Positions 7,583 through 23,345 of a stretch of DNA of 64,000 bases are shown piece after piece; the stretch's first letter is position 1; the number at the start of each line of letters is the position of its first letter. The stretch covers positions 65,230 to 129,229 of the forward strand of contig CAZGEO010000002.1 of NCBI GenBank assembly GCA_964525295.1. The letters are read 5' to 3'. Position numbers and translations under genes: made by a program. The DNA is from an uncultured Candidatus Saccharibacteria bacterium (GTDB lineage Bacteria; Patescibacteriota; Dojkabacteria; GCA-002793355). The notes under the pieces are model-generated. The model searched no databases. It worked only from the letters and a program-made list of their open reading frames with translations, and was not told where the DNA came from.

Positions 7583-8305
7583 ATGGAAAATGACTACAAA
7601 GTAAAAGTTTTAGCAATTGGAGCTCACCCAGACGATGTTGAATTTGGGTGTGGTGGATTAATGAAAAAGTTTGCCAAAAAAGGATATAAAACTGCCATCG
7701 TTGACATGAGCCAAGCCGAACTGTCAAGTAATGGGACGGTCGATGAGCGCATGAAGGAGGCAGGCGACTCGCGTGAAATTTTAGGAGCAGCATATCGTGA
7801 GAATTTGAAGATTCCTAATAATTTCTTTTTTAATACAAAGGAATACCAAGACAAACTTGTATATGCAGTCAGAAAGTACCAACCAGAGATGATTTTGGCA
7901 CCATACTTTTTTGATCGTCACCCTGATCATGAAAATGCGTCAAAGCTGATTCGCGACACCTTGTTCACTGCAGGATTGCGTATGTACAAATCAGAATTTG
8001 AGAAACACAGGCCAATTTATGTCCTTTTTTATATGATGTGGTACGAATTCCAACCTTCTTTGGTCGTTGATATTTCTGATGAACTTGATGACAAAATCAA
8101 TTCTCTTTTGGCATATAAGTCTCAATTTGATTTAGCTCCAGGAAGAGTAAAAACAATAGATAATGAAGATGCAACTCTTAAATATGTTGAGGCACGTGCA
8201 AGAACTTATGGCTTCCCAATTCAACGGAAATACGGAGAGCCATACTTAAGTATCAACAATCTTGGTGTTGATGACCCATTTTCGGTATTACCTAACTTTT
8301 TTTAA
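7583..8305 (+). CDS. PIG-L/LmbE-family N-acetylglucosaminyl deacetylase
   Basis: AHPDDVEFGCGG motif and HPDH motif of the LmbE-like zinc deacetylase superfamily (BshB/MshB/PIG-L). Confidence 0.8.
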   Translation: MENDYKVKVLAIGAHPDDVEFGCGGLMKKFAKKGYKTAIVDMSQAELSSNGTVDERMKEAGDSREILGAAYRENLKIPNNFFFNTKEYQDKLVYAVRKYQPEMILAPYFFDRHPDHENASKLIRDTLFTAGLRMYKSEFEKHRPIYVLFYMMWYEFQPSLVVDISDELDDKINSLLAYKSQFDLAPGRVKTIDNEDATLKYVEARARTYGFPIQRKYGEPYLSINNLGVDDPFSVLPNFF

Positions 8306-8306
8306 T

Positions 8307-9425
8307 ATGCAGAAAAATAGAGTATTGTTTGTAGCTTCTCCATGGTTGGGAGGAAGCGGTACTGTGGCGTATCGATTAGCTGAAGAAATTGAGAAAAAAG
8401 GCTGGGAGGTTCATTTTCTGTCATATGAAAAGCCTTTTAAATCGACGATGGAAAGCAAAATTGTTTATCATTTGGTGAAAGGGTACGAATATCCATTGTT
8501 CCCCTTTCCCATGTATGAACTCGCGCTAGCAGAAGAGATCGTGAAGACGGTTGTCGAGAATGACATTGCAGTTATTGCTGTGCATTATGGTATTTTGTTT
8601 GGCCATGCGGCAATGGTTGCGAAAAGTATACTCGCAACCTATGGGAGGAAAGTAAAGGTAGTTTTAACGATGCACGGGAGCGATGTTTTGGGATTTGATT
8701 TAGAAAAACCAGGAACAATTTTACCAAAGCACTTAAATAATTGGGTATTAGATTCTGCAGACCATATTACCGTAGCTTCAAAAGCTTTGCGTAAGTCGAT
8801 TCACGACATCAATGGGAAGTTCAGGGAGATTCAGCTCGTTCCGAATTTTATTGATGAATCGATCTATTATCCGAGCGATTTGAAAGTGAAAAAGAAGAAT
8901 ATTTGTATTCATATTTCGAACTATCGGAAAGTGAAGCAGCCACTTATTGTTGTGAAGGCATTCGAGCAGGTACAGAAGTCAATTCCCGATGCTGAGTTAT
9001 GGTTGGTTGGCGAAGGTCCACTATTAAGTGAAGCAATGAATTATGTCACGGCAAACGATATAAAGAATGTTACGCAATGTGGCAAAATTGATAGCGAATC
9101 CGAAATAGCTGCGATTTTGCGTAAATCAAAGGTGATGCTGTTACCTTCAATTTTTGAGAACTTTTCACTTGTAGCAATTGAAGCTCAGGCATGTGGGATT
9201 CCTGTAGTTGCTTCAAATACAGGAGGAATCCCTGAAGTCGTAATCGATACCAAAACAGGGTTCCTGAGCAATCCTCAAGATTTTGAATCGATGGCACAAA
9301 ATATTGTGAGCCTCTTAACAAACGAGGATGTGTACAGAAAGGTGAGTAGGGCTGCAGTTGCGAATGCACAACTGTACAAAATCGTTGAAGTCGCAGACCA
9401 GTACATAAGGCTTTTCAGACACTGA
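8307..9425 (+). CDS. GT4-family retaining glycosyltransferase of the BshA/MshA type
   Basis: N-terminal SPWLGGSGTVAYRLAEEIEKKGWEVHF resembles BshA/MshA. C-terminal LLPSIFENFSLVAIEAQACGIPVV carries the EX7E motif. The start was moved to the ATG at 8307 from the ORF-track start at 8262. Confidence 0.75.
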   Translation: MQKNRVLFVASPWLGGSGTVAYRLAEEIEKKGWEVHFLSYEKPFKSTMESKIVYHLVKGYEYPLFPFPMYELALAEEIVKTVVENDIAVIAVHYGILFGHAAMVAKSILATYGRKVKVVLTMHGSDVLGFDLEKPGTILPKHLNNWVLDSADHITVASKALRKSIHDINGKFREIQLVPNFIDESIYYPSDLKVKKKNICIHISNYRKVKQPLIVVKAFEQVQKSIPDAELWLVGEGPLLSEAMNYVTANDIKNVTQCGKIDSESEIAAILRKSKVMLLPSIFENFSLVAIEAQACGIPVVASNTGGIPEVVIDTKTGFLSNPQDFESMAQNIVSLLTNEDVYRKVSRAAVANAQLYKIVEVADQYIRLFRH

Positions 9426-9443: not shown

Positions 9444-10904
9444 TTACCATAACTTCCTATCCACCAAATAGTGATACAGGTAGTAGCCCTTTTTGCTTAA
9501 ATAGCCAAGGTTGTACAGTTCGGTCGCTCGTTCTATGCCAATGTAGCGAATATGCCATGGCTCATACGTGTAGCCAGTGTATGGTTGGGAACCGTCAGGA
9601 TACGAAATGACAAAGCCAAATTCGTGAGCATGAGCTTTTAAGTATGCATACGCAGTATTATTTGCTGAACTATATAGATTGCATGGGGCGGGGCAGCCCA
9701 TTATATCGAGAGTCGTGCCTAATTGATGCTCAGATTGCCCGGGTCGTGCTGAATAGGTATTTGCTTTTTCGATTGCCCGGGCGTAGGAAAGTCCATTTTT
9801 GACCTCTGTATTTACATAAGAATTGAACAAGGATTCCTGTACCGCAAAAGAGCGGTATGATGAGGAAACTCTGATGTAGCCAACGCCTTTGGCGTTGGCA
9901 TCTGCAAACATTTTTTGTAGTGCATCTCGAGTTTCGGGAGTAACGAAACCTCCGCCAGTAACGCCAGTTGCTACTACTTGCGGTGCGTACCACGAGGGTA
10001 ATGCATAGTTCTTACTTACAGGTGCAAGCCAGCAATTTTTACAGTTTAGTGGAATAGCGTTGGTTCCTGCCGAGGCTGGCTGAGGTTTGGCGCATAACGA
10101 GTTAATTGTTGCAAAGACTTTGTCGAATACGTAGGTTTTAGATTCTTTGAGATAGAGTATTGGAATTACACCAGTAACATCGCAGTTACTCTGTTTGATG
10201 GTGATTGTGGCAATTGAAACGCTATCGGCATTTTCTTCAATAGTGTCGTTAATATGATAGAGAATTTTGGCATCAAGGCGATAAGAAAGATCTGAAATTT
10301 CAACCAATTTGTCGATATTTTTCATCTCTTCTGGTGAAAATAGTGGAAGTAGGGCAGTTTTGTCTTTTTTGGGTAACTTATCTTTGAAAACTGCCCATTT
10401 TTGATTGAATTCCTCTAATAAATGTTCTTCGTTTTTTGTACCTGCATAAACGATTTCATTTGTGGGCTCTTTTATGATGTTTCCTGGTACTGAATAGTCA
10501 CTTGCAATGATGCCATTGATAGTTAATCTGTGGTAATTGCGTTGATAAACGCCATCAACGCCCTGCGGAAAACGATAATTATGATCAACTAAAAAATTTT
10601 CGTCAATTTGCCGGCTTGTTGAAAACGGTACAGGTTGCTCTTGTGTGGTAATTATCTCATCGGTTGCTGAAATATCATATTTTCGCAGTTCAGTTGCCAC
10701 AAGAGGCAAATTTGAGGCATTAGTGTGCCCTACTAAGCGTAATGCTAGCGTGAGCGTTTCTTCTTGTGTTTGTGGTGTGTTGTTTTTTAATAATGCCCAC
10801 GCAAGTACCCTATTGAAAGGAGATAACTCCCAGGCAAGCATAACAGCCATAATAGAGGCTGCAAGAAACAGGCTTGCAATGAGAATTAGGCGTTTTACTG
10901 GCAT
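9444..10904 (-). CDS. Membrane-anchored peptidase M15 (VanY-type D-Ala-D-Ala carboxypeptidase)
   Basis: N-terminal TM helix. C-terminal SEHQLGTTLD and EPWHIRY motifs are the zinc-binding motifs of the M15B/VanY family. Confidence 0.8.
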   Translation of the reverse strand: MPVKRLILIASLFLAASIMAVMLAWELSPFNRVLAWALLKNNTPQTQEETLTLALRLVGHTNASNLPLVATELRKYDISATDEIITTQEQPVPFSTSRQIDENFLVDHNYRFPQGVDGVYQRNYHRLTINGIIASDYSVPGNIIKEPTNEIVYAGTKNEEHLLEEFNQKWAVFKDKLPKKDKTALLPLFSPEEMKNIDKLVEISDLSYRLDAKILYHINDTIEENADSVSIATITIKQSNCDVTGVIPILYLKESKTYVFDKVFATINSLCAKPQPASAGTNAIPLNCKNCWLAPVSKNYALPSWYAPQVVATGVTGGGFVTPETRDALQKMFADANAKGVGYIRVSSSYRSFAVQESLFNSYVNTEVKNGLSYARAIEKANTYSARPGQSEHQLGTTLDIMGCPAPCNLYSSANNTAYAYLKAHAHEFGFVISYPDGSQPYTGYTYEPWHIRYIGIERATELYNLGYLSKKGYYLYHYLVDRKLW

Positions 10905-10954: not shown

Positions 10955-12319
10955 TTAAGTTCTTTTTGACTTATGTCTGTGTCGTTTGTTTTTTTCTTGT
11001 GCTGGGGCGTCGGCATCTGTTGCGAGTCTGAATTCTTTAGGCATGAGTGAATAAACTATTTCTTGCGCAACTAGAAAAGCTAATCGACGTGTAGCAATCT
11101 CTGTCGCATATTTGGCATCTTCAGTTTGCTTATTTTTTGTTTCAATACCGCACATCGCAGATTCTGCAAGAACATATAATGCATTTTTGGCATCTTCATC
11201 CTCGACTTTATGGGTGAAATTTTGTAAGTTTACAGCATAATGGATATCATCTTTTCCTAAATATCCACGTACAAAATGATTCGCAGCAGAATTAATTTGT
11301 TGGTGGAGTTGATCAATAAGATTCCTAACATCGGTAGTATCAGCTGGAAATCGTGCACATTTGAACCGTTTAATGAATACCGAAAAATCTTTCTTTAGTG
11401 CATGTTGAAGTGTAAGAATTAATCCTTTTGCATAAGGGGAGGCCAGAACTGATGAATCGTTTTCAAAGTCTAATAAGTCAGCAGTACCAGTAAATTTTGA
11501 ACCTCTGGTAAATCTTGAAATATCAACAGTATCTTCGAAGTCAGTTAACGCAATCTTGAACGAAGTCATTCTATTTTGGGCAATTATATATCTATTACCA
11601 AAGTGAAGCTGAGGGTGGCATTCACCGATTGCTGCTAACTCACCAATAGCGCGATACGTTGTTGCTAGGCAGGAGTCCCATCCATATAATTCAATTCCTT
11701 CGTAATAATCAATAACTTTCCCCCCGTTTATTGTGTAAACACCAGTTGCAAATCTTGTAGGCCTATTGTCGATAGAATATTCAAATGCAGCGATGTATTC
11801 TGGAATTATAAGGTTAGTTGAGCCATTTCGACTTCTGTTAAGTTTTTTAACCTTATTATACGCACGTTGCGTATTCAAAACTTTTTCTCTCAGCGAGTCA
11901 GAATAGTAACCTCCACGTGGACTTTGATCGTTAACAAAAGTAACTTCACCGTTTGCTGAAATTACCGCTGATTGAATAACTAAATTACCTCCAGGTAGAT
12001 AAGGCATTTCAGATACTGGTAATGAGATTGGTAGCTCTGTGAAGGATTGCCCTTGTTTTCGAAATCTTCCCCCGTTTATTACAAAGAATCTTGGTAATCC
12101 AGGTGCATTAGATACTGCGATAAGATTTCGCGTTGTTTCGTTAGGAACGAATTCGCGTGTTTCATACACGTTTTTTGGGTAAGTTCCTTTTTCCAGCCAT
12201 TCATCAAGTAATGCTATCAATTCTTGCGATGGTTTTGGAATTGATTCAACTAAGGGGCTTGGTGAGGTAATAGTACAAACTCTTGTCGAATCTGTGAGTA
12301 TCTCAGTTTTCATCTTCAC
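10955..12319 (-). CDS. Hypothetical protein with an aminoglycoside-phosphotransferase-like kinase fold and a substituted catalytic Asp
   Basis: ECHPQLHFGN aligns to the APH-family catalytic loop CHGDLHPGN with GD replaced by PQ. Downstream LTDFED resembles the metal-binding IDFE. Calling this a pseudokinase is an inference. Confidence 0.4.
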   Translation of the reverse strand: MKMKTEILTDSTRVCTITSPSPLVESIPKPSQELIALLDEWLEKGTYPKNVYETREFVPNETTRNLIAVSNAPGLPRFFVINGGRFRKQGQSFTELPISLPVSEMPYLPGGNLVIQSAVISANGEVTFVNDQSPRGGYYSDSLREKVLNTQRAYNKVKKLNRSRNGSTNLIIPEYIAAFEYSIDNRPTRFATGVYTINGGKVIDYYEGIELYGWDSCLATTYRAIGELAAIGECHPQLHFGNRYIIAQNRMTSFKIALTDFEDTVDISRFTRGSKFTGTADLLDFENDSSVLASPYAKGLILTLQHALKKDFSVFIKRFKCARFPADTTDVRNLIDQLHQQINSAANHFVRGYLGKDDIHYAVNLQNFTHKVEDEDAKNALYVLAESAMCGIETKNKQTEDAKYATEIATRRLAFLVAQEIVYSLMPKEFRLATDADAPAQEKNKRHRHKSKRT

Positions 12320-13187
12320 ACCCGATTAATTTTGCCATTTTTTGCAAGATTGCAAAATATTCTTTATTGTATTTGTTTTCTGGTTCAACCGCACTAGGTA
12401 TTGGATTTCTTGCTGGTGATAAATATATAGCCGGGATGGTAATGACTTGACCTGGGTCAAATGCACCATGAAGTACATTTGCAAGAGCACCGCTTGGCGT
12501 TTGTGACGTACCATTGGTATCGTGAATAAGATAGTAAATGTTTGTACTCTGTTTAATAATTCTTGTGCATATTTCATCAATTGAACGTCCGAATGGGAAA
12601 TTCAGCAACATTGAGTGAAAGCCTTCTCTTTTGGACTCTATGAGTTCCTTAATTACGTTGAAATATTTTTCGAACCACTCAACCATTTTATTACTCTCTA
12701 CAGTCGGACGTTCTTTTAATACTGAATCTAGAGCTTTAGTTTCAAAATTATTTAGAAATATTCTTTGAAACATTGATGTTGCCGTAAATATTCCGCTGGT
12801 ATGATAGCCTCCGACGTATGCACTCTTCACGTCTTCTCGACCTAAGACATGTATCTTTAATATCGTATTGGCACTTCTTTCAGTAAAAACATGTTGGCGC
12901 ACTACGACAGGAAGGTCGCTTATGTCATTTTGGTCGCAATGAGTTGCAATAACTGGAACCATTCTTACCTCACTACCTTTGATGTTTTTTACTTCTACCG
13001 CAATGTAACCAATACCTGCGAATTGATCAGGATCGATGATTTCAAGCGTTCTCATCGGCAGAATTGCATTGTTATATCGGTCAATAATTCTATTTTCGAG
13101 CTTGGTAATATTTTCGCGCGTGGCTGGGATATTTTTGTGATTTGGTCCAGTTGGAGAAAATTTTGCATCGTAAAGAGGAGCCATCAA
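12303..13187 (-). CDS. Hypothetical protein, 294 aa
   Basis: Long ORF that overlaps the downstream gene by 17 nt. No recognisable motif. Confidence 0.55.
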   Translation of the reverse strand: MMAPLYDAKFSPTGPNHKNIPATRENITKLENRIIDRYNNAILPMRTLEIIDPDQFAGIGYIAVEVKNIKGSEVRMVPVIATHCDQNDISDLPVVVRQHVFTERSANTILKIHVLGREDVKSAYVGGYHTSGIFTATSMFQRIFLNNFETKALDSVLKERPTVESNKMVEWFEKYFNVIKELIESKREGFHSMLLNFPFGRSIDEICTRIIKQSTNIYYLIHDTNGTSQTPSGALANVLHGAFDPGQVITIPAIYLSPARNPIPSAVEPENKYNKEYFAILQKMAKLIGCEDEN

Positions 13188-13272
13188 TAATTTTATTATA
13201 TTATCCTGTAGTGTATTTTATTTCTTTTGGGATTTATTGTCAAAGTTACTCAGTTAAGATGATCGCTTGAGA

Positions 13273-15075
13273 CTAAAAACGTTCATTTAATGCTAAGTGC
13301 GCTACTGCAACAAGCCTTAATGCATCTAGTTCGTATTCATTTATTGGTACTTTGACGATTATTTGCTCAAGTTGTCTCCAATACGTTTCAAATAATTCTG
13401 GGCGCAACGCTTTATTACATAAACCTGCAGCAGTCTCTAAAATGCTTATTCGGTATGCTTTTTCGACATTAAGTACTTTTTCAAAAAAATTGTTTGCGTT
13501 AAACCACGTTGGGTGAATCTCGTTTTTTGCTGAAATTTTATAGGTAGCAAGGGCAACAGTATCGCTATTCCGCGATTCATTCCAAAGTTGTTCGGCAAGT
13601 TCGGCACGCTCCGCGTATTTTGGTGGCGCATATTGCATAAAGTGTTCCGTATTGCCCGTGCGTATCAATTGAATGAATTGTGCAATATGCGTGTGATTTT
13701 CATGTTTCATGGTATTGGTGTATTTCGCAATATCCTGGAAGTCAAGTGGTTCTGGTAATCGTTTGTACCGATTGTTTTGAAGTTGTAACTTCTTATCGTA
13801 TTTTTTGAAAAGTGAGTCTCGGCTTCTTGCAATATTTTTTCTAGTCTGAGCGTATGGTTCTTGCGTATATTTTTGTTGTAATTCATGCGCAATTGCGTAG
13901 TAAATTTTTTGGTCAAAATAGGGCACGAAACGCGACAGAATTACAGCTACTTCGTTTGGATTAGGGCAGATATCTTGTAAAAGTACAGCAAGATATTTTG
14001 CTCGATGTGAATCGAGCTCTTTTTTGGTAAATAATCTGAGAACTGGGGCGGGGGGTGGGGCAAGGCGTCGTAATGATTTTGCCGTAAGCATTATTTCGAT
14101 ATCTACAGGAGTGATCTCTTTGAATGGAGTTCTCTGCAGGCTGTATGGCGCAAAATCGCTGAAAAATACTAAATCGCCGGCATCTGCAAAGCCATATTCA
14201 GAGTCTTTGAAGAATTGTTGATTGTGTGAAGAGGCTTCATCGTATACTGCGCCGGCCTTTAGTAAATGAATCACCGTTTTTGCAACGTGTGCAAAACCAT
14301 TATCTCTAATTAATTCTTTTGCATGTGCAGGAATCATTTCACCTCTGACTCGTACCCGTGGTACTCGTTTTTCACCAGGTGATAGTGAGCCTAATGTGAC
14401 TACTTTCGGTAGTTCATCTTCGCGAAAAGCCTTCGGCTTTTCGCGTACTTTTCTGAAACGCTCATACAAATTGGCTAATCTTTCATTAAGTACGGGTAAT
14501 TCTGCTATGGCAAAGGGTATATGAAATTTTCTATTTGCAAGAAAATTTGTTGTGGTTTCGCTTTGCCAGGTATGAGTGTTCCCGATGATTGCTAGGGCAT
14601 TGATCATTTCGAACAAAGCTTCTTCTTCATACAATGCGCCGGCAACACGTGGATGGGCAGTAGATTCCATGAAAAGTTCCATAGGTTTTATTGGATATGC
14701 AAATCCAGCACTATCTAGCTCCTCTCGTTCAAGTGTAACGTCATTCCCGTCACCTTTAACTGTTACTGTGAGTTTTGTGTTCTTGTCGATGACAATTTTG
14801 TGTGAACTGGATCTACCTTCTCGGTGAACTTCCCCTTTTTTTCCTTTTCGTGTTGGGGCAAGAAATAGTATTGGCGTGAGTTTTGCCACAACTGTGGCTA
14901 ATCCATTAGCGATTTCTTTAGGAAATCCTGCTATTTTTAAATCTTCGCAATAATTCCTTTTGTAGGCTTCAATTGTTTTTTCGCTATCTTTAGGTTTAAT
15001 ACGACCTGTATATAAAGAATTGCGTTTTGATGATAACTCCGGGAGATTTTCAAAAATAGGCGCCGGTATTGGCAT
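13273..15075 (-). CDS. Hypothetical protein, 600 aa
   Basis: Long ORF. No recognisable motif. Confidence 0.55.
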   Translation of the reverse strand: MPIPAPIFENLPELSSKRNSLYTGRIKPKDSEKTIEAYKRNYCEDLKIAGFPKEIANGLATVVAKLTPILFLAPTRKGKKGEVHREGRSSSHKIVIDKNTKLTVTVKGDGNDVTLEREELDSAGFAYPIKPMELFMESTAHPRVAGALYEEEALFEMINALAIIGNTHTWQSETTTNFLANRKFHIPFAIAELPVLNERLANLYERFRKVREKPKAFREDELPKVVTLGSLSPGEKRVPRVRVRGEMIPAHAKELIRDNGFAHVAKTVIHLLKAGAVYDEASSHNQQFFKDSEYGFADAGDLVFFSDFAPYSLQRTPFKEITPVDIEIMLTAKSLRRLAPPPAPVLRLFTKKELDSHRAKYLAVLLQDICPNPNEVAVILSRFVPYFDQKIYYAIAHELQQKYTQEPYAQTRKNIARSRDSLFKKYDKKLQLQNNRYKRLPEPLDFQDIAKYTNTMKHENHTHIAQFIQLIRTGNTEHFMQYAPPKYAERAELAEQLWNESRNSDTVALATYKISAKNEIHPTWFNANNFFEKVLNVEKAYRISILETAAGLCNKALRPELFETYWRQLEQIIVKVPINEYELDALRLVAVAHLALNERF

Positions 15076-15187
15076 TATAAATGATGCTGTCTACTTATTG
15101 TGAATTGTAGCCGAAAATACCAGATAAAGTCAACGGTATGTTATCTCGTAAGTGGAGAACAGCATACTCAGGGTGATATTCCTTTAA

Positions 15188-16192
15188 CTACGACCTGCAC
15201 TGGTCTTGAATTTTCTGGAAAACTTGTCCGAGAGTATTTGCAAACCTTCCTCGATCGACACTCAGGTTATATGCTTCGTTATTGTTTAATGTTTCAGGAT
15301 GAGTGGTGTTGGTTTGAAACGGATCTGTACCGTATGCATCGACTTCGAAATCAATTGCTATGTTCGGCGAAATACTTCCACCCCCAAGTAAATCAGCTTT
15401 GTCGGTAAAACCTACTTGATCTTCTGGGGATAACTGAGTTTTGTAGTAAATAAGAGTTTTTTCGTTTTTTCTAAAGAATCTCTCAACGCGGGAAGGTTTT
15501 TTTACAACAACATTAGTTTTTTCGCCAGAAGTATAGATTTTGTATGGAAATCCAACGATAGTTAACCTGTTAAGGTCAGGATTTACTTTCCAGAAATTTT
15601 CTCTGTGCAACAGTTCATTCGGGAGTGTTTCGCCTCCACTTTGTCTTTCTATCCATGAAAGATCTTGAACTCCTGGTAGAGGTAAGTCGTCCATTTCTTC
15701 TAATTTTGTTCCATCTGGATAACTTTCATATTTTGGAACAGAAATTGCTTGTATAAGACTTGTTGGTCTATAAACACCACTTGCGCCATCGAACGTACAA
15801 ATAGCGGTCGCTGTTCTAACGGAGGCATTTTGAACTACGTACATTCTTGCTAATACGGCACCTTCAGGCAAATTCTCAAGGAGTTCCTTTGGTATAGATT
15901 TACTTTCATCTGGCTCTAATCTTCGTAAAATAAATGGAATTGGCTTTTCACCGACTTCTTGCTGAAGTCGCTCCCCCGAGGGGGAAACTTTTTCGATTGT
16001 ACCTGTTGCGAGTATTGGTGTTCGGCCTGTAGCTGCTTCGGGGGAGAATTTGTTGTATTCAGGGTTTCTGTCTTTGTAGATTCCGATAATTTCATTGATT
16101 AAATCAGTCGCTTGCTTGACTCTTTCATCTGCAGAATGAATGTCTTCCAGAGGTTTTCTTTCAGACTTTGTTGGTTCAAAAAGTGGTGCCAT
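15188..16192 (-). CDS. Hypothetical protein, 334 aa
   Basis: Long ORF. No recognisable motif. Confidence 0.55.
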   Translation of the reverse strand: MAPLFEPTKSERKPLEDIHSADERVKQATDLINEIIGIYKDRNPEYNKFSPEAATGRTPILATGTIEKVSPSGERLQQEVGEKPIPFILRRLEPDESKSIPKELLENLPEGAVLARMYVVQNASVRTATAICTFDGASGVYRPTSLIQAISVPKYESYPDGTKLEEMDDLPLPGVQDLSWIERQSGGETLPNELLHRENFWKVNPDLNRLTIVGFPYKIYTSGEKTNVVVKKPSRVERFFRKNEKTLIYYKTQLSPEDQVGFTDKADLLGGGSISPNIAIDFEVDAYGTDPFQTNTTHPETLNNNEAYNLSVDRGRFANTLGQVFQKIQDQCRS

Positions 16193-16253
16193 GTAGTATT
16201 ATACTAAATTTTGGGGAGGTTAGACAATATCCTTTGCTTCGAATTGAATAATA

Positions 16254-16262
16254 TGGGATAAT
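16254..16262 (+). promoter_or_regulatory. Extended -10 TGgGATAAT, 5 nt before the ATG at 16268
   Basis: Fits the leaderless promoter pattern recurring in this window. Confidence 0.35.
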
Positions 16263-17296
16263 TGCACATGGGAAGATCTACTCCTCGTTCGCGATCGCAC
16301 GAGAATGAAGTTGAAGCAATTCTAGGGCAAGGTATTTCAGGTGCTCCAGTTATGCAGGTAAAAATGTCTGAGGGGCGATTTGCTTTAAAATTTGTGAATG
16401 GTGAAAAGGATTCTATCGAAGCTAAGATTCATGAGAAATGTCGAAAAGCCCAATTAGATAAAAACGGTCCAATCTTTTATTCACCAAAAACTATAGAAGT
16501 ATCTGAAAAACTGCGTACTAGGTCTCTTGAGATGTTTATAAATTATGAAGCAGCGAATTTGAGGATTCAGCCAGAGCTTTTAAGAACACAACTTGAAGCG
16601 AAAATTGTAGATAGGGGGCTAATATTGCAGTCAATACACTACAATGCATTGAAAAATGCAAAAATTGCATTTCTTTTTCCTATTGTTCAAGAGGGCTCTT
16701 GCGAACAAACATTAGCACTTATTGCGGCAAGCCATGATACTAAATCTAATAGGGCGAGCATTTTAGATAAAGAGCTCTTGATAAGTACTGTGTATAGAGT
16801 AGCAACTGCCCTGGATTGGTTGAAATGCGAAGGGTATATTCATGATGATTTGTCACTCGCAAATATGTTTGGTGTAGGTGATAAAACTCAGCTAGCTGAT
16901 TTTTCAAATGCAAAGGCAATTAGTGGCAATAACGAAAAACGCCAGCGAGAGCAATTTGTTCGATTAATTAGAGCACTGGCCGTTTCCGAAGGGTATTTCA
17001 ATATATTAATTGCAATTTTCTTACTTCAAGGGAAAGAGTCTCCTGTTGCCAATATGTATCGAAAAGATATTGATATTCCAAAGCAATTGAATATGTTTTC
17101 CGTCTTAGTAAGACCTCAATTTCCTATGCCCGCACCTGACGGAAAAAATGTCGATTCGTGGTTAGTTGCACTCGAAGCAAAATTCCAGACAGAATTTATT
17201 AAGGAATTAGGGGATAAATGGATCGTATCGGGAGAGAGTTACGAAGCGTTTGCTCAACAATTGATACCAAGATTTCGAAAAGCACTTGTTGATTAG
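16262..17296 (+). CDS. Protein-kinase-like protein of the eukaryotic-type kinase fold
   Basis: Gly-rich loop LGQGISGAPV, Lys in FALKF, catalytic-loop YIHDDLSLAN (an HxDxxxxN pattern) and DFG-like LADFS. The ORF-track start is a TTG; the first ATG is at 16268. Confidence 0.55.
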   Translation: MHMGRSTPRSRSHENEVEAILGQGISGAPVMQVKMSEGRFALKFVNGEKDSIEAKIHEKCRKAQLDKNGPIFYSPKTIEVSEKLRTRSLEMFINYEAANLRIQPELLRTQLEAKIVDRGLILQSIHYNALKNAKIAFLFPIVQEGSCEQTLALIAASHDTKSNRASILDKELLISTVYRVATALDWLKCEGYIHDDLSLANMFGVGDKTQLADFSNAKAISGNNEKRQREQFVRLIRALAVSEGYFNILIAIFLLQGKESPVANMYRKDIDIPKQLNMFSVLVRPQFPMPAPDGKNVDSWLVALEAKFQTEFIKELGDKWIVSGESYEAFAQQLIPRFRKALVD

Positions 17297-17302
17297 AGGG
17301 TT

Positions 17303-17358
17303 TCAATAAATTTCTAGCCTTACCACCCATTCCCCGTTTTCAATTTTCTAGGTAAGTA
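17303..17358. repeat. Copy A of a 56-bp imperfect direct repeat; the partner copy is at 19660-19715
   Basis: 48 of 56 nt are identical to 19660-19715. Copy A is a decayed duplicate of the 3' end of the minus-strand gene 19660-20670, with a stop codon in frame. Confidence 0.7.
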
Positions 17359-17383
17359 GTCTCAAATTGTGGCATAATTACAT

Positions 17384-19435
17384 ATGCATGGTGAGAGCAA
17401 ACGCGTAGAAAATAGAGATCGTGAAGCTACTAAAGAAACAAAAAATATAGTTCGTGATAGCAGGGTTTCTGAAGCTTTGAGTATTTTTCATGACAAAAAA
17501 GCATCTGCAGAACAATTAGAAAAAGCTTGTAGACTACTAGCATCGCCGGATTTATCATTTTTGAGAGAAGATTCTCTTCTTCAACGCCGAGATTGTACAG
17601 ATGTGCATAAGAGAAATTTACAAGATAAAATTCGCCAAAAATTTGATACTGCACAAATTATATATAGCGGAGAATATTCACCGTTAGTTCCGATTTCCGA
17701 TGACCAAGTAATCTCACGGAATATCAAATTTTCGAGTAAAATTAGAAGTCTCGGTTCATATAACATTGAAAAAGATAGAATCACACTAAATAGTAGTTTA
17801 GCGATTGAACAACAAAACTTTCCAACACTCCATCAATTAAGACTCACAGCAACAATAATTCATGAAGAAGAGCATCGCAAAAACTTTAGTAGACGTGCTT
17901 TGGGGCGATTATGTATTATAGAATCTAATGATAAGCAAAAAGAACCACACGTATCGCAACGTGATTTGGTTGTGCCAGAAAAGTTTTATAAGGCCTCCCG
18001 ACAGGTACTTTCTTGGATAGATGAAATTGGTGCATACTTGAGTGAAGTCGATATGTCAGATTATGGAGACTTTGCAGAGTATCTCAAAATGCTTAAGGAG
18101 CACAAACGATATACTGACACCGATGCGCCAAAGGCTGGCACTCTTGAGGTTTTAGTTATAACAATTGCTGCTGGTAAAGAAATTGGTGTGCAACCAGTAG
18201 ATATTCTTGAGCAATTGGTAACTCGTTATCAAATATACGAGAGATTACACCTTTCACCGCAATTGACCAGTGCACTTTTGCTCAGGCAAGCAGAAAGTAT
18301 CGTAAGATCAGAAGCCAAAAAAATTGGGAGAACAGAAGAATTATCAGAATTAGGGAAACGATATATCCTTCGTGGGCAGGTCAAATATTTACTTGCAAAT
18401 GCCTTAACAGCAGAAGCATTGCAAGAGGTTGGAGAAATGTTGGAGAGCAAACAAAGTTATGAATTAATTGCCCCTGAGGGGAATCTCGCTGCAAAGGTCT
18501 ATTTTATTCCCGATATGTTTAAATCAAGGTCTAATATTCCATCACGATATCAGCCTGCATTTGTTTTAAAGAAAATGACTGATGATAAGGGCGAATCTTC
18601 GCAATTCGGAAATTATCGCTTGTCATTACGATACTTTGACCCAACAACAGGGGGAAGTTATGTTGTTCCATCTAGAAATATCGAGTCGTTACGAAGTGAC
18701 GAATTTCAGAATGCTTTTAAAGATTTTGTTAAAACTTTACCAAATGAGCTTGTGAGCGATCTCTTGCGTAGTGCAAATTCATCAAGTGTTTTGCAAACAC
18801 ATCTGCATAGTTTAAGTGAGACATTGAGCGATCAATTCATTATGGAATTGAATATACAGCACGGTCTTGCATTTGAACGGGCGAAAGAGATACTTGCGAC
18901 GCGACAGCAGAATCGAAAGAGAACAAATTTTAGTCAAGCTATGAAGTTGCTACAAGAAGAATTGCTCGAAAAAGAATATGTCGCAGCACAACGACCGACA
19001 TATTTACCCGTTAAAATTTCAAGAATGAGCGAAAATGAAATGGGAAGTGTCACTACGATTGCATTGAGAAATCATTCAATTCAAGGAGTACCGTATGATG
19101 CTGCTGCGGTTGTTACTATACCAAATAAAGAATATCTTGACGCTGGTAAGTTATCTATAACGCTTGCATCAGTCGAGAAAGTACCCAATGAGGAAAGATT
19201 AAGGCAGGTTGCAAAAGCAATTATTGATTCACTTCCACACGTGACCAGGCAAGCGATGTCGTTAAATTATAGAGCAGGGAATTTTGAATTACCTCGAGAT
19301 GTTCAAGACACTCATGGTAGGCTGGTTAGCGAGGTAAGAAAGTACTTAGAAGAGCTTGGTTATGCAGTAATTGCTGGGGCAAAACAGAAAAGAATAATTA
19401 CCATTGCTGATTGGTTTAGTAAGTATGTTAAGTAG
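17384..19435 (+). CDS. Hypothetical protein, 683 aa, containing an HEEEH (HExxH-type) motif
   Basis: Long ORF. TATIIHEEEHRKN is a possible zincin motif, but the evidence is weak. An extended -10 TGgCATAAT at 17370-17378 ends 5 nt before the ATG. Confidence 0.55.
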   Translation: MHGESKRVENRDREATKETKNIVRDSRVSEALSIFHDKKASAEQLEKACRLLASPDLSFLREDSLLQRRDCTDVHKRNLQDKIRQKFDTAQIIYSGEYSPLVPISDDQVISRNIKFSSKIRSLGSYNIEKDRITLNSSLAIEQQNFPTLHQLRLTATIIHEEEHRKNFSRRALGRLCIIESNDKQKEPHVSQRDLVVPEKFYKASRQVLSWIDEIGAYLSEVDMSDYGDFAEYLKMLKEHKRYTDTDAPKAGTLEVLVITIAAGKEIGVQPVDILEQLVTRYQIYERLHLSPQLTSALLLRQAESIVRSEAKKIGRTEELSELGKRYILRGQVKYLLANALTAEALQEVGEMLESKQSYELIAPEGNLAAKVYFIPDMFKSRSNIPSRYQPAFVLKKMTDDKGESSQFGNYRLSLRYFDPTTGGSYVVPSRNIESLRSDEFQNAFKDFVKTLPNELVSDLLRSANSSSVLQTHLHSLSETLSDQFIMELNIQHGLAFERAKEILATRQQNRKRTNFSQAMKLLQEELLEKEYVAAQRPTYLPVKISRMSENEMGSVTTIALRNHSIQGVPYDAAAVVTIPNKEYLDAGKLSITLASVEKVPNEERLRQVAKAIIDSLPHVTRQAMSLNYRAGNFELPRDVQDTHGRLVSEVRKYLEELGYAVIAGAKQKRIITIADWFSKYVK

Positions 19436-19659
19436 TAGTGCTAACGATGTTCGCTTTATCGAGGCTCTCAGGTGGAAGTTGATAACGTGACGTTGTTTGT
19501 ATAATTCCCCGAAGAAACTTGTAGAATATACTGCTAAATGTATTGTTAAATTACAATATTACGTTGTTGAAGTACTTCGACATTATTGAATCCTTGTACC
19601 CCTATAAAGAAAATAGTTCATATTCTTGACACATATGGCGAGAAAAATTCAACGACGTC

Positions 19660-19715
19660 TTAATAAATCTCCACCCTTACTACCCATTCCCCGTTTTCAA
19701 CTTTCCAGGTAAGTA
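19660..19715. repeat. Copy B of the 56-bp direct repeat, forming the authentic 3' end of the gene 19660-20670
   Basis: Encodes the C-terminus TWKVENGEWVVRVEIY of the minus-strand gene. Confidence 0.7.
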
Positions 19716-20670
19716 ACCCAAGGTTAGTCTTTTCAAGGTAGCGTGCGGCAAGCGAGAGCGAGCGAGGTTCACGACAGGTAGCACCGGGCAGAAGGGCATT
19801 GCGAAGGGTAATGACGTCGCGCTGGCACGAGATGCGAACAGGAGCAGTCACATCCCCATGTTGGGAGATGTTGGAGAGGAGGTCGAAGAGAATGAGGGGA
19901 AGTATTAGTAAATGTGATGAGTTAATGTTTTTCTTGTAAGAATCAAATGAAATTTTGATATCTAGGATATCGCCAAAATATTTAGTTAGGATTGCGAGGA
20001 TTTCTTTTATCGAAGTACCTCTTATGGTATTGTTTGAATCTACAGGCGAGTTTCCGAGTAATTTAATTAGTGCTTCTTTTTGTTTCGAATCCTTTTGCCA
20101 TATAAATGAATTCAGCAAATTTTTGTTTGTATGTGCGGAGAGAGAAGAATAGAGTCCTCTTATAACGAGCAATGAGATTTTATTGTCTGTATGAGTATCA
20201 AGAAAGGCAAGTTTTAATAAGTAATTTTGTGTCATAAAAATGCTAATAGATATAAGACCGATTAAAAGAATATTTTCTGCTCCTACAACCCAATAAGGAT
20301 CCTTTTGAAAAGGTAGAATTTCAATAAATTCGAGTCCAAGCAAAAATAATACTAAGAATTGGAAAAAATAGACGTATTTTTTTTCATATAGAATATAAAT
20401 AAAAGGAGATATTAGTATTGGTAAAAGACTTGAGAAGGGAACAATACTTCCCCAAGTAAGAATTGTTGCGATGTAGGTTATTACTAATAAGAATACTAGT
20501 GCGTGGATAATTAACTTGGGATATATGATAGAAACAAGTAACGCAATTGTAATAGCAGAGCATATTATCAGGTATTCAAATTTCAAAGTAGCTCCAGAAA
20601 TTTGGTAGTAAAATATGATTGAAAGCGGTACTACACAAAATAGTAAAAGTAATCTACTAATCTTTTTCAT
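19660..20670 (-). CDS. Polytopic membrane protein with a degenerate histidine-kinase-like ATPase C-terminus
   Basis: Six or more TM helices in the N-terminal half. The C-terminal LLSNISQHGD (N-box-like) and GLL region are weakly HATPase_c-like. Overlaps the mutS start by 4 nt. Confidence 0.4.
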   Translation of the reverse strand: MKKISRLLLLFCVVPLSIIFYYQISGATLKFEYLIICSAITIALLVSIIYPKLIIHALVFLLVITYIATILTWGSIVPFSSLLPILISPFIYILYEKKYVYFFQFLVLFLLGLEFIEILPFQKDPYWVVGAENILLIGLISISIFMTQNYLLKLAFLDTHTDNKISLLVIRGLYSSLSAHTNKNLLNSFIWQKDSKQKEALIKLLGNSPVDSNNTIRGTSIKEILAILTKYFGDILDIKISFDSYKKNINSSHLLILPLILFDLLSNISQHGDVTAPVRISCQRDVITLRNALLPGATCREPRSLSLAARYLEKTNLGLLTWKVENGEWVVRVEIY

Positions 20671-23345
20671 CCCTTTTTCAACTTCTCCACCAGTACCAAT
20701 GCTTCTACGGGGGTGAGGGTGTTTATGTCTGTGCCGTCGAGCAGCTCCATTAATCTTTCAAACTTCTGCAACTTTTCTTTCTGTTCTTCGGTTAGCTGAT
20801 TGCGCAGGGGGAGCTGGGGTTTGGTAGTGCCGATGAGTTCGCCCAATAGATTCAGTTGTCCCTGCCCACCATTGTGGGAAAGCGGTAAAGGATTAAAGCC
20901 TGAAAGTTCACTAACTTCTTTATTACTTTCTTGCTTTACTTTTTGTCCCTCTGCTTCAAAGTTCTCTAGTACTTGAAACGCTGTATTGATTATTTCTTCT
21001 GGCAAATTCACCAGTTTTGCTACCTGTATACCATAGCTCTTGTCGCTTTTGCCGCGGGTAACGGTGTGTAAGAAGTAAATCGTATTGTCTTGCTCGCGCA
21101 GATTCACTTTGTAGTTAATAAAGCGGTTCGAGATATTTTCAAGGTCGGTTAGTTCTCTAAAGTGGGTGGTGAAAATTGTTGTACACCCAATCTGATTGGC
21201 GATATATTGGGCAATTCCCCAGGCGAGCGAAATTCCTTCGTATGTGCTTGTTCCTCGGCCAACTTCGTCTAGAATAACCAAGCTTTTTGCGGTTGCTTGC
21301 GAAACTATGTAGGCCACTTCTGAAAGTTCAACCATAAACGTACTCTTGCCGGTGGTAATATCGTCTGACGCACCAATACGTGCGAATACTTGATCGGTAA
21401 TTGGCAAGGTCGCTTTTTCAGCTGGCACGAAAGAGCCAATCTGCGCCATAATTTGCAGTAGCGCAATCTGACGAACAAAAGTAGATTTACCACCCATGTT
21501 AGGGCCAGTAAGTATCAAAAAGTTCTGATCTTCAGTAACGGTGAGGTCGTTTGGCACAAATTCTTTCACGGTAGTTTCAACAACTGGGTGGCGCATGCCA
21601 ACAAGGTCGTAGGTTCTTTCAGTTTCGGTAAGTAGCGGGCGAACATAGCGTTTGGTAAGTGCGTTTGTAGCGAATGAATGGAGTACATCTAGTTTGGCAA
21701 GGTAGTTAGTGAGTATGTTGAGTGTTGCGGTGTAGTTGCGAAGGTTTTGCACTAGTTCGCCGTAAATCTTTGTTTCGAGAATTGTTAATTCACCTTTTGC
21801 CGAAAGTACTTGTGCCTCGAGAGTTTTCAATTCCTCAGTAATGTAACGCTCGGCATTCACCATCGTTTGCTTTTTGATGAAGTGCTCTGGTGCGTTTTTG
21901 CCTTGAATGCGCGAAAGCTCGAATGCGTAGCCGAAGACATTGTTGAAGGTGAGCTTGAGCGCCGGCAAATTATTGACAGTCTTTTCTTTGTTGAATAGGT
22001 CTTTAATGTACTGTTCGCCATTAGTGGCAAGACTGACCAATTTGTCTAATTCGCTATTTACACCGTCTTTGATAAATGTCCCCCGGTCTGAATTAATAGT
22101 TAATACAGTAATAATTAATGAAACAATTTCGCTCAATTTTTCAATTTCTTGCTTCGCTAGCTTTGCGAGTTTTTCTTCAGGAGGGAAACTCGTTGGATTA
22201 GTATCTAGGAATCGTTGAATTGCCTCGGCAATGGTGAGTAGGTGTCTATAATGAATTCTGCCAAGCCCAAGCGCGCTAGTTAAACGCTGCAAATCGGGGA
22301 ATTTGTGCAATAAGTTGGCTACTCCTTGGTAGGCTTCGCTATTTTGCATGAAAAAGTCGACAACGTCGTATCTTTCGTTAAGTTGCTTGACATCGGTAAG
22401 CGGAAAACTGAGCCATTCGTACAAAAGTCTGTGTCCCATGGCGGTCTGCGTAGAATCTACGGCCCCAAGAAGAGAACCTTCAGTTCGGTGTGTCTTCAAA
22501 TTGTAGAAAATTTCAAGATTTCGTTGAGAAATTGGATCAATATGCAGCGCCGACTTTGGGTTAAAGAATGAAAGCGACGTAATATGCTTAGGTTCCGATT
22601 TTTTCGTATCGTAAAGGTAATCTAACAGAACGCTAGCTGCGCTTGTCGCATACGGAAAATCACTTAATCCAAGAGGATCCAAATTTGGCACGCCAAAGTG
22701 CTTTTTTAACTGTTCCAGCTTTGTTGAAGAGGAAAATTCGCGGTCTTCAATCGGCTGCACAACGGTGGACAGGGTAGAGGTATCGGTGTGTGTATCTTTT
22801 GTAGACTTAAGCAGTTCTCGTGGTGAAAGGCGTTCCAAAAGCTCGGTTATGGTTTTGTCGTTGAATCTATCTTCGTAAACCTTGAATTCGCCGGTTGAGA
22901 TATCGGCAAAAGCTAAACCAAACATTTTACCGTCGGTACTTATGCAGGCCAGGTAGTTTTTGTCGTTCGAGAGCAATTCTTGCTGTGTTGCTATGGTCCC
23001 TTGGGTGATAACTTCGGTAACTGCGCGTTTTACAATGCCTTTGGCATTCTTTGGATTCTCTATTTGGCGTGCAACGGCCACTTTAAACCCTGCTGCAATC
23101 AACTTTGGGAGGTAATCGTCTAACGCTTTTTGTGGAAATCCTGCCATTGGTGGTGCATCTTCACTTTTTGATCGACTGGTAAGCACAATTCCCAAGGTTT
23201 CTGATATTTTCTCGGCATCATCGCCGAAGCATTCGAAAAAATCGCCCATTTGAAACAACAGTACTGCATCTTTATATTCATTCTTGATTGCCTGATACTG
23301 TGCCATTAATGGCTTTGTTTCGGTCATAACGAGATTGTAGCACAA
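20667..23345 (-). CDS. mutS: DNA mismatch repair protein MutS
   Basis: N-terminal MAQYQAIKNEYKDAVLLFQMGDFFE mismatch-binding domain. Walker A TGPNMGGKSTF and the DEVGRGTST motif. The likely true start is the MTETKPL Met at 23327. Confidence 0.9.
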   Translation of the reverse strand: MCYNLVMTETKPLMAQYQAIKNEYKDAVLLFQMGDFFECFGDDAEKISETLGIVLTSRSKSEDAPPMAGFPQKALDDYLPKLIAAGFKVAVARQIENPKNAKGIVKRAVTEVITQGTIATQQELLSNDKNYLACISTDGKMFGLAFADISTGEFKVYEDRFNDKTITELLERLSPRELLKSTKDTHTDTSTLSTVVQPIEDREFSSSTKLEQLKKHFGVPNLDPLGLSDFPYATSAASVLLDYLYDTKKSEPKHITSLSFFNPKSALHIDPISQRNLEIFYNLKTHRTEGSLLGAVDSTQTAMGHRLLYEWLSFPLTDVKQLNERYDVVDFFMQNSEAYQGVANLLHKFPDLQRLTSALGLGRIHYRHLLTIAEAIQRFLDTNPTSFPPEEKLAKLAKQEIEKLSEIVSLIITVLTINSDRGTFIKDGVNSELDKLVSLATNGEQYIKDLFNKEKTVNNLPALKLTFNNVFGYAFELSRIQGKNAPEHFIKKQTMVNAERYITEELKTLEAQVLSAKGELTILETKIYGELVQNLRNYTATLNILTNYLAKLDVLHSFATNALTKRYVRPLLTETERTYDLVGMRHPVVETTVKEFVPNDLTVTEDQNFLILTGPNMGGKSTFVRQIALLQIMAQIGSFVPAEKATLPITDQVFARIGASDDITTGKSTFMVELSEVAYIVSQATAKSLVILDEVGRGTSTYEGISLAWGIAQYIANQIGCTTIFTTHFRELTDLENISNRFINYKVNLREQDNTIYFLHTVTRGKSDKSYGIQVAKLVNLPEEIINTAFQVLENFEAEGQKVKQESNKEVSELSGFNPLPLSHNGGQGQLNLLGELIGTTKPQLPLRNQLTEEQKEKLQKFERLMELLDGTDINTLTPVEALVLVEKLKKG

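Follow-up and report, generated by a model that had tools for sequence, protein, structure and literature searches.

An orphan gene bracketed by a duplicated kinase-gene end downstream of mutS in a Dojkabacteria genome: a candidate recombination scar

How does a single gene come to stand between two copies of the 3' end of its neighbour? The question is raised by a 64,000-nt stretch of DNA (hereafter the window; contig CAZGEO010000002.1, positions 65,230 to 129,229), in which an orphan gene encoding 683 amino acids (aa) on the plus strand (17384-19435) is bracketed by direct repeats, each corresponding to the 3' end of the adjoining minus-strand gene for a histidine-kinase-like (HK-like) membrane protein (19660-20670). 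A scan with MutS, whose gene lies immediately upstream of the HK-like one, assigns the window to Candidatus Dojkabacteria (WS6), a lineage belonging to the candidate phyla radiation (CPR). We favour, with about as much doubt as conviction, a recombination-mediated insertion which left an orphaned gene end behind, rather than transposition or the activity of a present-day integrative element.

A repeat search recovered a single direct-repeat family at the site, pairing 17300-17358 with 19657-19715 at a spacing of 2357 (59 nt, 51 of them, or 86%, identical). A preliminary description of the same DNA had reported 48 matches among the 56 positions of 17303-17358 and 19660-19715; the pair is real, while the count over these positions is 49. 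A degenerate 41-nt consensus of the repeat occurs at only two sites in the 64 kb, against an expectation of 0 from 100 dinucleotide-preserving shuffles. When the 336-aa HK-like protein was compared with the window by tblastn, it matched the upstream copy, which we call copy A, over 21 residues (17306-17368, 81% aa identity, E 4e-5). As this extends the homology to 21 codons, the full repeat is 69 nt long (17300-17368 and 19657-19725), with identity at 55 of the 69 positions. The outer edge of the homology lies 3 nt beyond the stop codon in both copies, and 30-nt blocks taken just outside both repeat edges agree at 5-9 positions, the level of chance.

The downstream copy, copy B (19657-19725, minus strand), supplies the HK-like gene with its functional 3' end. 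Read on the minus strand as ...NLGLLTWKVENGEWVVRVEIY*, it forms the end of the open reading frame (ORF) at 19660-20670 with a TAA stop at 19660-19662, and the C-terminus that it encodes aligns end to end with the C-termini of orthologues from two relatives (L005 and L007, described below). Copy B is therefore a working gene end of normal length, and the true C-terminus that it had been supposed to be. Copy A (17300-17368, minus strand) is what is left, orphaned and non-coding, of the last 21 codons and the stop of such a gene, reading ...NLRLLT*KIENGEWVVRLEIY*. It is without a start, carries an in-frame stop where TGG has become TAG (17348-17350) and closes with TGA (17303-17305), which bears out its earlier characterization as a decayed pseudo-terminus. 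The relic occupies nearly all of the 87-nt gap between the 683-aa gene and a protein-kinase-like gene on its other side. Repeats which hold a common register, extend just past the stop and are flanked by sequence matching at chance level are as expected of two natural gene ends with different downstream neighbours.

Within the 63 coding positions the copies differ at 12, falling on codon positions 1, 2 and 3 in the ratio 5/1/6; nine codons are affected, five synonymously and four non-synonymously. Half of these differences (6/12) set an A in copy A against a G in copy B, and the repeat also contains a perfectly identical stretch of 19 nt with diverged arms on both sides. The arrangement is not an assembly artefact, since two Logan assemblies, independent of each other, match the locus base for base (100% identity over 6 kb). 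Exact-protein look-ups indicate that all three contigs on record encoding the flanking proteins carry the insertion, and no empty-site or excised variant was found among the contigs on record.

The gene whose end is duplicated is closely tied to mutS, its start overlapping the mutS stop by 4 nt. Orthologues of 22-26% identity lie directly after mutS, also overlapping it, in L005, L006 and L007, the corresponding overlaps being 8-14 nt in L005 and L007. The predicted product combines a multi-pass N-terminal part with a weakly DesK/YocF-like C-terminal domain. No Pfam model scores above its cut-off; a profile of four orthologues, compared with the PDB, matches only the ATP-binding (CA) domains of DesK and YocF, weakly (E 0.012-0.04), over a span taking in the N-box along with the C-terminal strands. 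Among the orthologues, H180 and N267 do not vary. "HK-like membrane protein" seems a fair label on the strength of these sequence resemblances.

The genomes nearest to the window, with MutS proteins 65-67% identical, are L005 (PFQB01000107), L006, L007 and L029 (CP129470), and no MutS above 69% identity was found among GTDB species representatives and JGI metagenomes. L005, L006 and L007 retain both mutS and the HK-like gene. The 683-aa gene and the protein-kinase-like gene are absent from the relatives examined (L005-L009 and L029), and a comparable repeat was not found in L005, L007 or L029. The preliminary description had named conservation of both repeat copies across distant relatives as evidence against an insertion; what we found is relatives with neither the repeat nor the gene.

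From one lineage to the next, everything that lies between the HK-like gene and VanY is different. Three conserved genes (121, 340 and 301 aa) lie between the HK-like gene and a VanY gene in L007, and the same trio is accompanied by three more genes in L005. Across relatives the members of the trio measure about 121-147, 335-342 and 301-342 aa and precede the VanY/G5 gene. At the trio's place the window carries six consecutive orphan genes (454, 294, 600, 334, 344 and 683 aa; region noted as 10955-17296), and hhalign detected no homology between the 454-aa and 294-aa genes and the relatives' trio. The complete genome of L029 differs again: the HK-like gene is absent, and mutS is followed by a 5.8-kb island (12600-18520) with DNA-methyltransferase-like genes, labelled here a restriction-modification island. 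At the distal edge of this island, on the mutS strand, in syntenic position and abutting a conserved 143-aa gene, whose end it overlaps, lies an orphan fragment (18403-18519, ...KNMGNIRHFLTLTNKGSLEVQRRNSLFITTLTY...) with homology (E 0.002) to the final ~35-39 residues of the kinases from L005 and L007. Replacement at this site thus leaves a distal gene end behind. Taken with the insertion in the window, the L029 island means that at least two lineages have been hit at the junction, each keeping the distal end of the kinase gene; the site turns over repeatedly. By analogy, the distal copy A is most simply read as the ancestral end, and copy B as having been brought or created by the insertion.

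We propose the following course of events. A DesK-like membrane histidine-kinase gene, transcribed together with mutS, would originally have ended in what is now the dead copy A. At some time in the past, recombination would have placed a self-contained transcription unit, made up of a leaderless promoter, the 683-aa gene and a 224-bp tail, between the body of the kinase gene and its last 21 codons. Copy B would have arrived with the same DNA, as a homologous kinase 3' end by which the gene is now completed; the donor of this DNA may have been a related lineage of Dojkabacteria whose 683-aa gene lay next to the kinase gene and convergent with it. The exchange could have proceeded by homology-facilitated illegitimate recombination (HFIR), in which a homologous crossover within the kinase gene is paired with an illegitimate join placed 21 codons short of the resident stop, or, equivalently, by a circularised fragment entering through a single crossover via ~70 bp of homology. 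The capture of linear DNA is documented both by HFIR and by a Campbell-type route (PMC3240628), and HFIR has been proposed as a model for the orphaned 3' regions that displacement leaves at type VI secretion system (T6SS) and Rhs loci (PMC5361080). Features of HFIR are present at our locus, in that the relic has the same orientation, is distal to the new DNA and shares homology which ends at a natural gene end. The structure demands a kinase gene severed 21 codons ahead of its stop and made whole again by another, homologous end. The homology edge 3 nt past the stop, the single difference among 12 at a second codon position and the lack of a recombinase together suit recombination with a related lineage. 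Which copy is ancestral, who the donor was and which route was taken are matters that we infer.

The 683-aa gene had been described as likely to be recently acquired, an assertion which the data do not bear out. Its GC content (0.379), GC content at third codon positions (GC3, 0.275) and codon usage (z = +0.26 when scored against 48 ORFs from the window) are typical. A foreign composition was accordingly rejected, and the values fit either a donor whose composition was similar or an event long past. The insertion cannot be called recent, because the copies differ by 14% (over 59 nt) to 20% (over 69 nt), the relic has acquired a nonsense codon, and the inserted gene has native codon usage and a native promoter. 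We regard it as an old, ordinary recombination scar. The geometry of the repeats fits the broader claim of the preliminary description, that a segment was inserted into, or duplicated across, the 3' end of the membrane-protein gene.

Several observations weigh against the insertion that we propose. Firstly, the comparison is a distant one: the closest MutS proteins are 65-69% identical, and neither an empty site nor a donor arrangement has been seen, nor the direction of the event. Secondly, seventy base pairs are short for RecA-dependent recombination. Thirdly, the bias towards silent changes between the copies is not significant in simulation (P about 0.07-0.12) and is also expected if copy B alone stayed under selection, so that it does not decide between origins; similarly, the identical run of 19 nt is no longer than the chance spacing of 8 mismatches would give, and identifies no crossover core. 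Lastly, a GC-rich patch beside copy B is not accounted for by a donor of similar composition. This patch (19736-19885, minus strand) comprises the most GC-rich 150 nt of the window (GC 0.607 against a mean of 0.386 with a standard deviation of 0.048, hence ~4.6 standard deviations above the mean). It begins 10 nt beyond the inner edge of copy B, covers residues ~262-311 of the HK-like protein and has a GC3 of about 0.55, while the orthologues display merely a mild rise in GC3 over the corresponding region. The patch showed no folding, nor any DNA or translated match in the window or the fetched loci; it may mark a mosaic or foreign segment. The compositional outliers of the neighbourhood are in fact the HK-like gene (z = -1.9) and mutS (z = -1.6, with a GC3 of 0.445 against about 0.31 typically).

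The alternative which survives best, although we consider it unlikely, is a decayed site-specific integrative element which had the HK-like gene's 3' end as its target. The repeat copies would then represent attL and attR, the element would have supplied the replacement end, and its integrase and most of its cargo would since have been deleted. Such elements are classically recognised by direct repeats through which a target gene's 3' end is duplicated and restored, and this is found here; the 19-nt identical stretch between diverged arms might be taken as a further indication, as might the presence of a different island at the same site in L029. That island, on the other hand, deleted the body of the kinase gene rather than restoring it, which is not site-specific behaviour, and no repeat was found in L005, L007 or L029. 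Searches of the neighbouring genes with Pfam, NCBIfam, PHROGs and PADLOC, together with the Pfam hits over ~10 kb on each side, revealed no integrase, transposase, recombinase, phage or defence family, in keeping with the earlier remark that no recombinase is adjacent; nor does any integrase, excisionase, or phage- or plasmid-like gene lie between the repeats. The segment instead consists of one native-looking gene under a native promoter, and its protein has no relatives in phage, plasmid or IMG/VR collections. A target in a tRNA or transfer-messenger RNA (tmRNA) gene was rejected, the nearest tRNA being 18 kb away. Target-site duplication by a transposon or insertion sequence was likewise rejected: such duplications are 2-15 bp long and identical, whereas the present repeat is 59-69 nt long and diverged, no inverted repeats were found at the segment ends, and there is no transposase.

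A doubtful further possibility is that copy A descends from a tandem paralogue of the HK-like gene, the distal copy having been destroyed and its body replaced by the 683-aa gene, such that the last 21 codons alone survive. The common orientation of the copies and an outer boundary exactly at the gene end would follow naturally, and the divergence between the copies leans towards silent and conservative changes, as between two once-functional genes. This history requires two events, however; tblastn (E up to 10) located no further fragment of a second HK-like gene in the 64 kb, and tandem HK-like copies were seen in none of the relatives.

It is more improbable still that nothing large was inserted and that a 69-nt piece of the gene end was merely copied, by break repair or ectopic conversion, into the spacer between the protein-kinase-like and 683-aa genes. 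If copy A were taken away, 18 nt would separate these co-directional genes, a distance normal for operons in the window, which speaks for such a templated patch; against it, the copied piece must by chance have started 3 nt past the stop and held the coding register, and the sole homologue of the 683-aa gene (see below) is a stand-alone leaderless unit with no protein-kinase-like neighbour. We give scarcely any credence to a functional repeat, whether an RNA with a regulatory or terminator role or the template and variable repeats of a diversity-generating retroelement. One copy does sit at a gene 3' end and the other in nearby non-coding DNA, as in such retroelements, and 6 of the 12 differences set A against G. 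Against this, the two copies fold no better than shuffles of their sequence, whichever strand is taken (z = +0.8 to +1.8), Rfam gives no match, the neighbouring genes include no reverse transcriptase domain, the other half of the differences do not fall at adenines of copy A, and copy A contains a stop; the retroelement pair is rejected.

Returning to the insertion that we favour, the unit which would have been inserted begins almost at the relic itself. An extended -10-like element, TGGCATAAT (17370-17378, plus strand), starts 2 nt past the inner edge of copy A and ends 5 nt before the ATG of the 683-aa gene, giving the architecture TGGCATAAT-N5-ATG. A leaderless-type promoter had been proposed here, and the style is that of about half of the window's genes: a TANNNT motif ends 4-8 nt before the ATG in 19 of 40 long ORFs, compared with 9.4% of all ATG triplets, and a Shine-Dalgarno-like motif precedes just 5 of the 40. 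The data thus support a promoter which, as judged from its motif, would be native in style for this genome. Leaderless-style starts in the window are exemplified by 17370-17386, 16254-16270 and, on the minus strand, 15193-15210.

As had been described, one ORF of 683 aa with an HEEEH motif lies between the copies. The motif spans residues 160-164 and is followed by a W-x-DEI motif at 211-215. The protein appears mostly helical and has no signal peptide or transmembrane segment. It has no match in Pfam, NCBIfam, PADLOC, PHROGs or the PDB sequences, and word-indexed homologue searches with it and with the 336-aa protein recovered nothing beyond the queries. HMMER, run exhaustively against 1.84 billion representatives, yielded one credible homologue, P0003 (476 aa, E 3e-7, 29% identity over residues 35-341); a repetitive protein of 5137 aa (P0004), which also matched, is regarded as probably spurious. 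P0003 conserves H160, E161, H164, R165 and N167 (HEEEH aligning with HEKRH) as well as W211-x-D213-E214-I215. The alignment starts at the N-terminus of P0003 itself, which supports the ATG at 17384. The gene for P0003 stands alone on an unrelated contig (L153) as a leaderless unit of the form TATAAT-N5-ATG. The same contig contains a 333-aa gene (8231-8928) with three tandem copies of ~243 nt that are 70-74% identical, and also bears giant surface-protein genes.

The preliminary term "zincin-like" stands in so far as the HExxH motif is conserved in this single distant homologue, which is its only support, and falls short in that no family library is matched. As in the gluzincins among the zincin metallopeptidases, the HExxH is followed by a conserved R and N and, some 50 residues downstream, by a conserved DE; unlike zincins, the protein matches no Pfam, NCBIfam or PDB family, and the residues inside its motif are charged instead of small or hydrophobic. 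An AlphaFold model was too poor for fold comparison (predicted local distance difference test score, pLDDT, 37). We tentatively consider the protein a putative HExxH metal-dependent hydrolase, compatible with a gluzincin-like arrangement, and offer this as a lead only, drawn from one homologue. The effector or toxin role formerly suggested for it is speculation.

Between the convergent 683-aa and HK-like genes lies the 224-bp spacer (19436-19659), in which neither a meaningful ORF nor an RNA-family match was found. Just after the 683-aa stop, 19431-19536 forms a long imperfect hairpin (-32.1 kcal/mol, z = -2.65; an equally stable fold arose in 3 of 200 shuffles). The hairpin lacks a U-tract, matches nothing in Rfam and may be a terminator.

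The remaining neighbours complete the variable block. On the plus strand, the protein-kinase-like gene of 342-344 aa (16262/16268-17296) encodes an HDDLSLAN motif resembling a catalytic loop and a DFS motif. Its Pkinase score of 23.6 bits (E 4e-5) is below the Pfam cut-off of 31.7; among its PDB matches, the best 60 of 142 at E<1 are all protein kinases, aligned over the catalytic-loop/DFG region only. The gene at 16268-17296 may accordingly be called kinase-like from its sequence, with membership of the Pkinase family not established. Because its stop is 6 nt from the stop codon of copy A, we infer that it was formerly the convergent neighbour of the HK-like gene. Four minus-strand orphan genes (454, 294, 600 and 334 aa) separate it from the VanY/G5 gene (9444-10904, minus strand), and in the opposite direction the HK-like gene is followed in gene order by mutS (20667 to 23327-23345, minus strand), the conserved anchor of our comparisons, with a gene for a phosphoenolpyruvate (PEP)-utilising enzyme beyond it.

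What the locus presents is a known kind of scar, an orphaned 3' end at an insertion junction, here occupying a variable site on the downstream side of mutS in the genome of a CPR bacterium. The relic offers a datable, stepwise record of gene turnover in a genome almost devoid of recognisable mobile elements. At least two steps went into building the variable block that separates the mutS-kinase operon from the VanY-like gene, and the same junction was struck independently in another Dojkabacteria lineage. The locus also flags a two-member family of orphan proteins with a conserved HExxH. Its value lies in documenting stepwise, apparently recombinase-free gene gain at a recurrent Dojkabacteria site, and, should closer genomes become available, the site could reveal whether reduced genomes gain genes mainly through homology-anchored recombination after DNA uptake. 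A bolder proposal, which we think very improbable, is that the 3' end of the HK-like gene is a dedicated Dojkabacteria capture site, where a host-encoded mechanism independent of integrases repeatedly installs cassettes and defence islands, the 683-aa protein being a cassette-borne effector of episymbiosis. Were this true, the mechanism would either rebuild or sacrifice the end of the kinase gene, and its cassettes would be single genes bearing their own promoters.

Three known systems invite comparison. The polymorphic mutS-rpoS region of enterobacteria is a variable region next to mutS, and resembles the present site as a hotspot of gene content immediately downstream of that gene; the phylum is unrelated and the neighbours are different, and the parallel may be coincidental. 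Genomic islands bounded by attL and attR share with our locus direct repeats which duplicate a gene 3' end, the proximal copy keeping the gene intact. They differ in that no integrase is present here, the cargo amounts to a single gene whose composition is native, the repeats have diverged by 14-20%, and the related island of L029 destroyed the target gene instead of restoring it. The orphan 3' regions of Rhs, contact-dependent inhibition (CDI) and T6SS loci (PMC5361080) are distinguished from our relic by several features: it is just 21 codons long, the intervening gene lies on the opposite strand, toxin-immunity logic is not evident, and the anchor is a sensor kinase instead of a polymorphic toxin. 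They are alike in their essential layout, in which a homologous anchor in a conserved gene is followed by a new segment, the old distal piece persists as a relic in the same orientation, and no recombinase is required.

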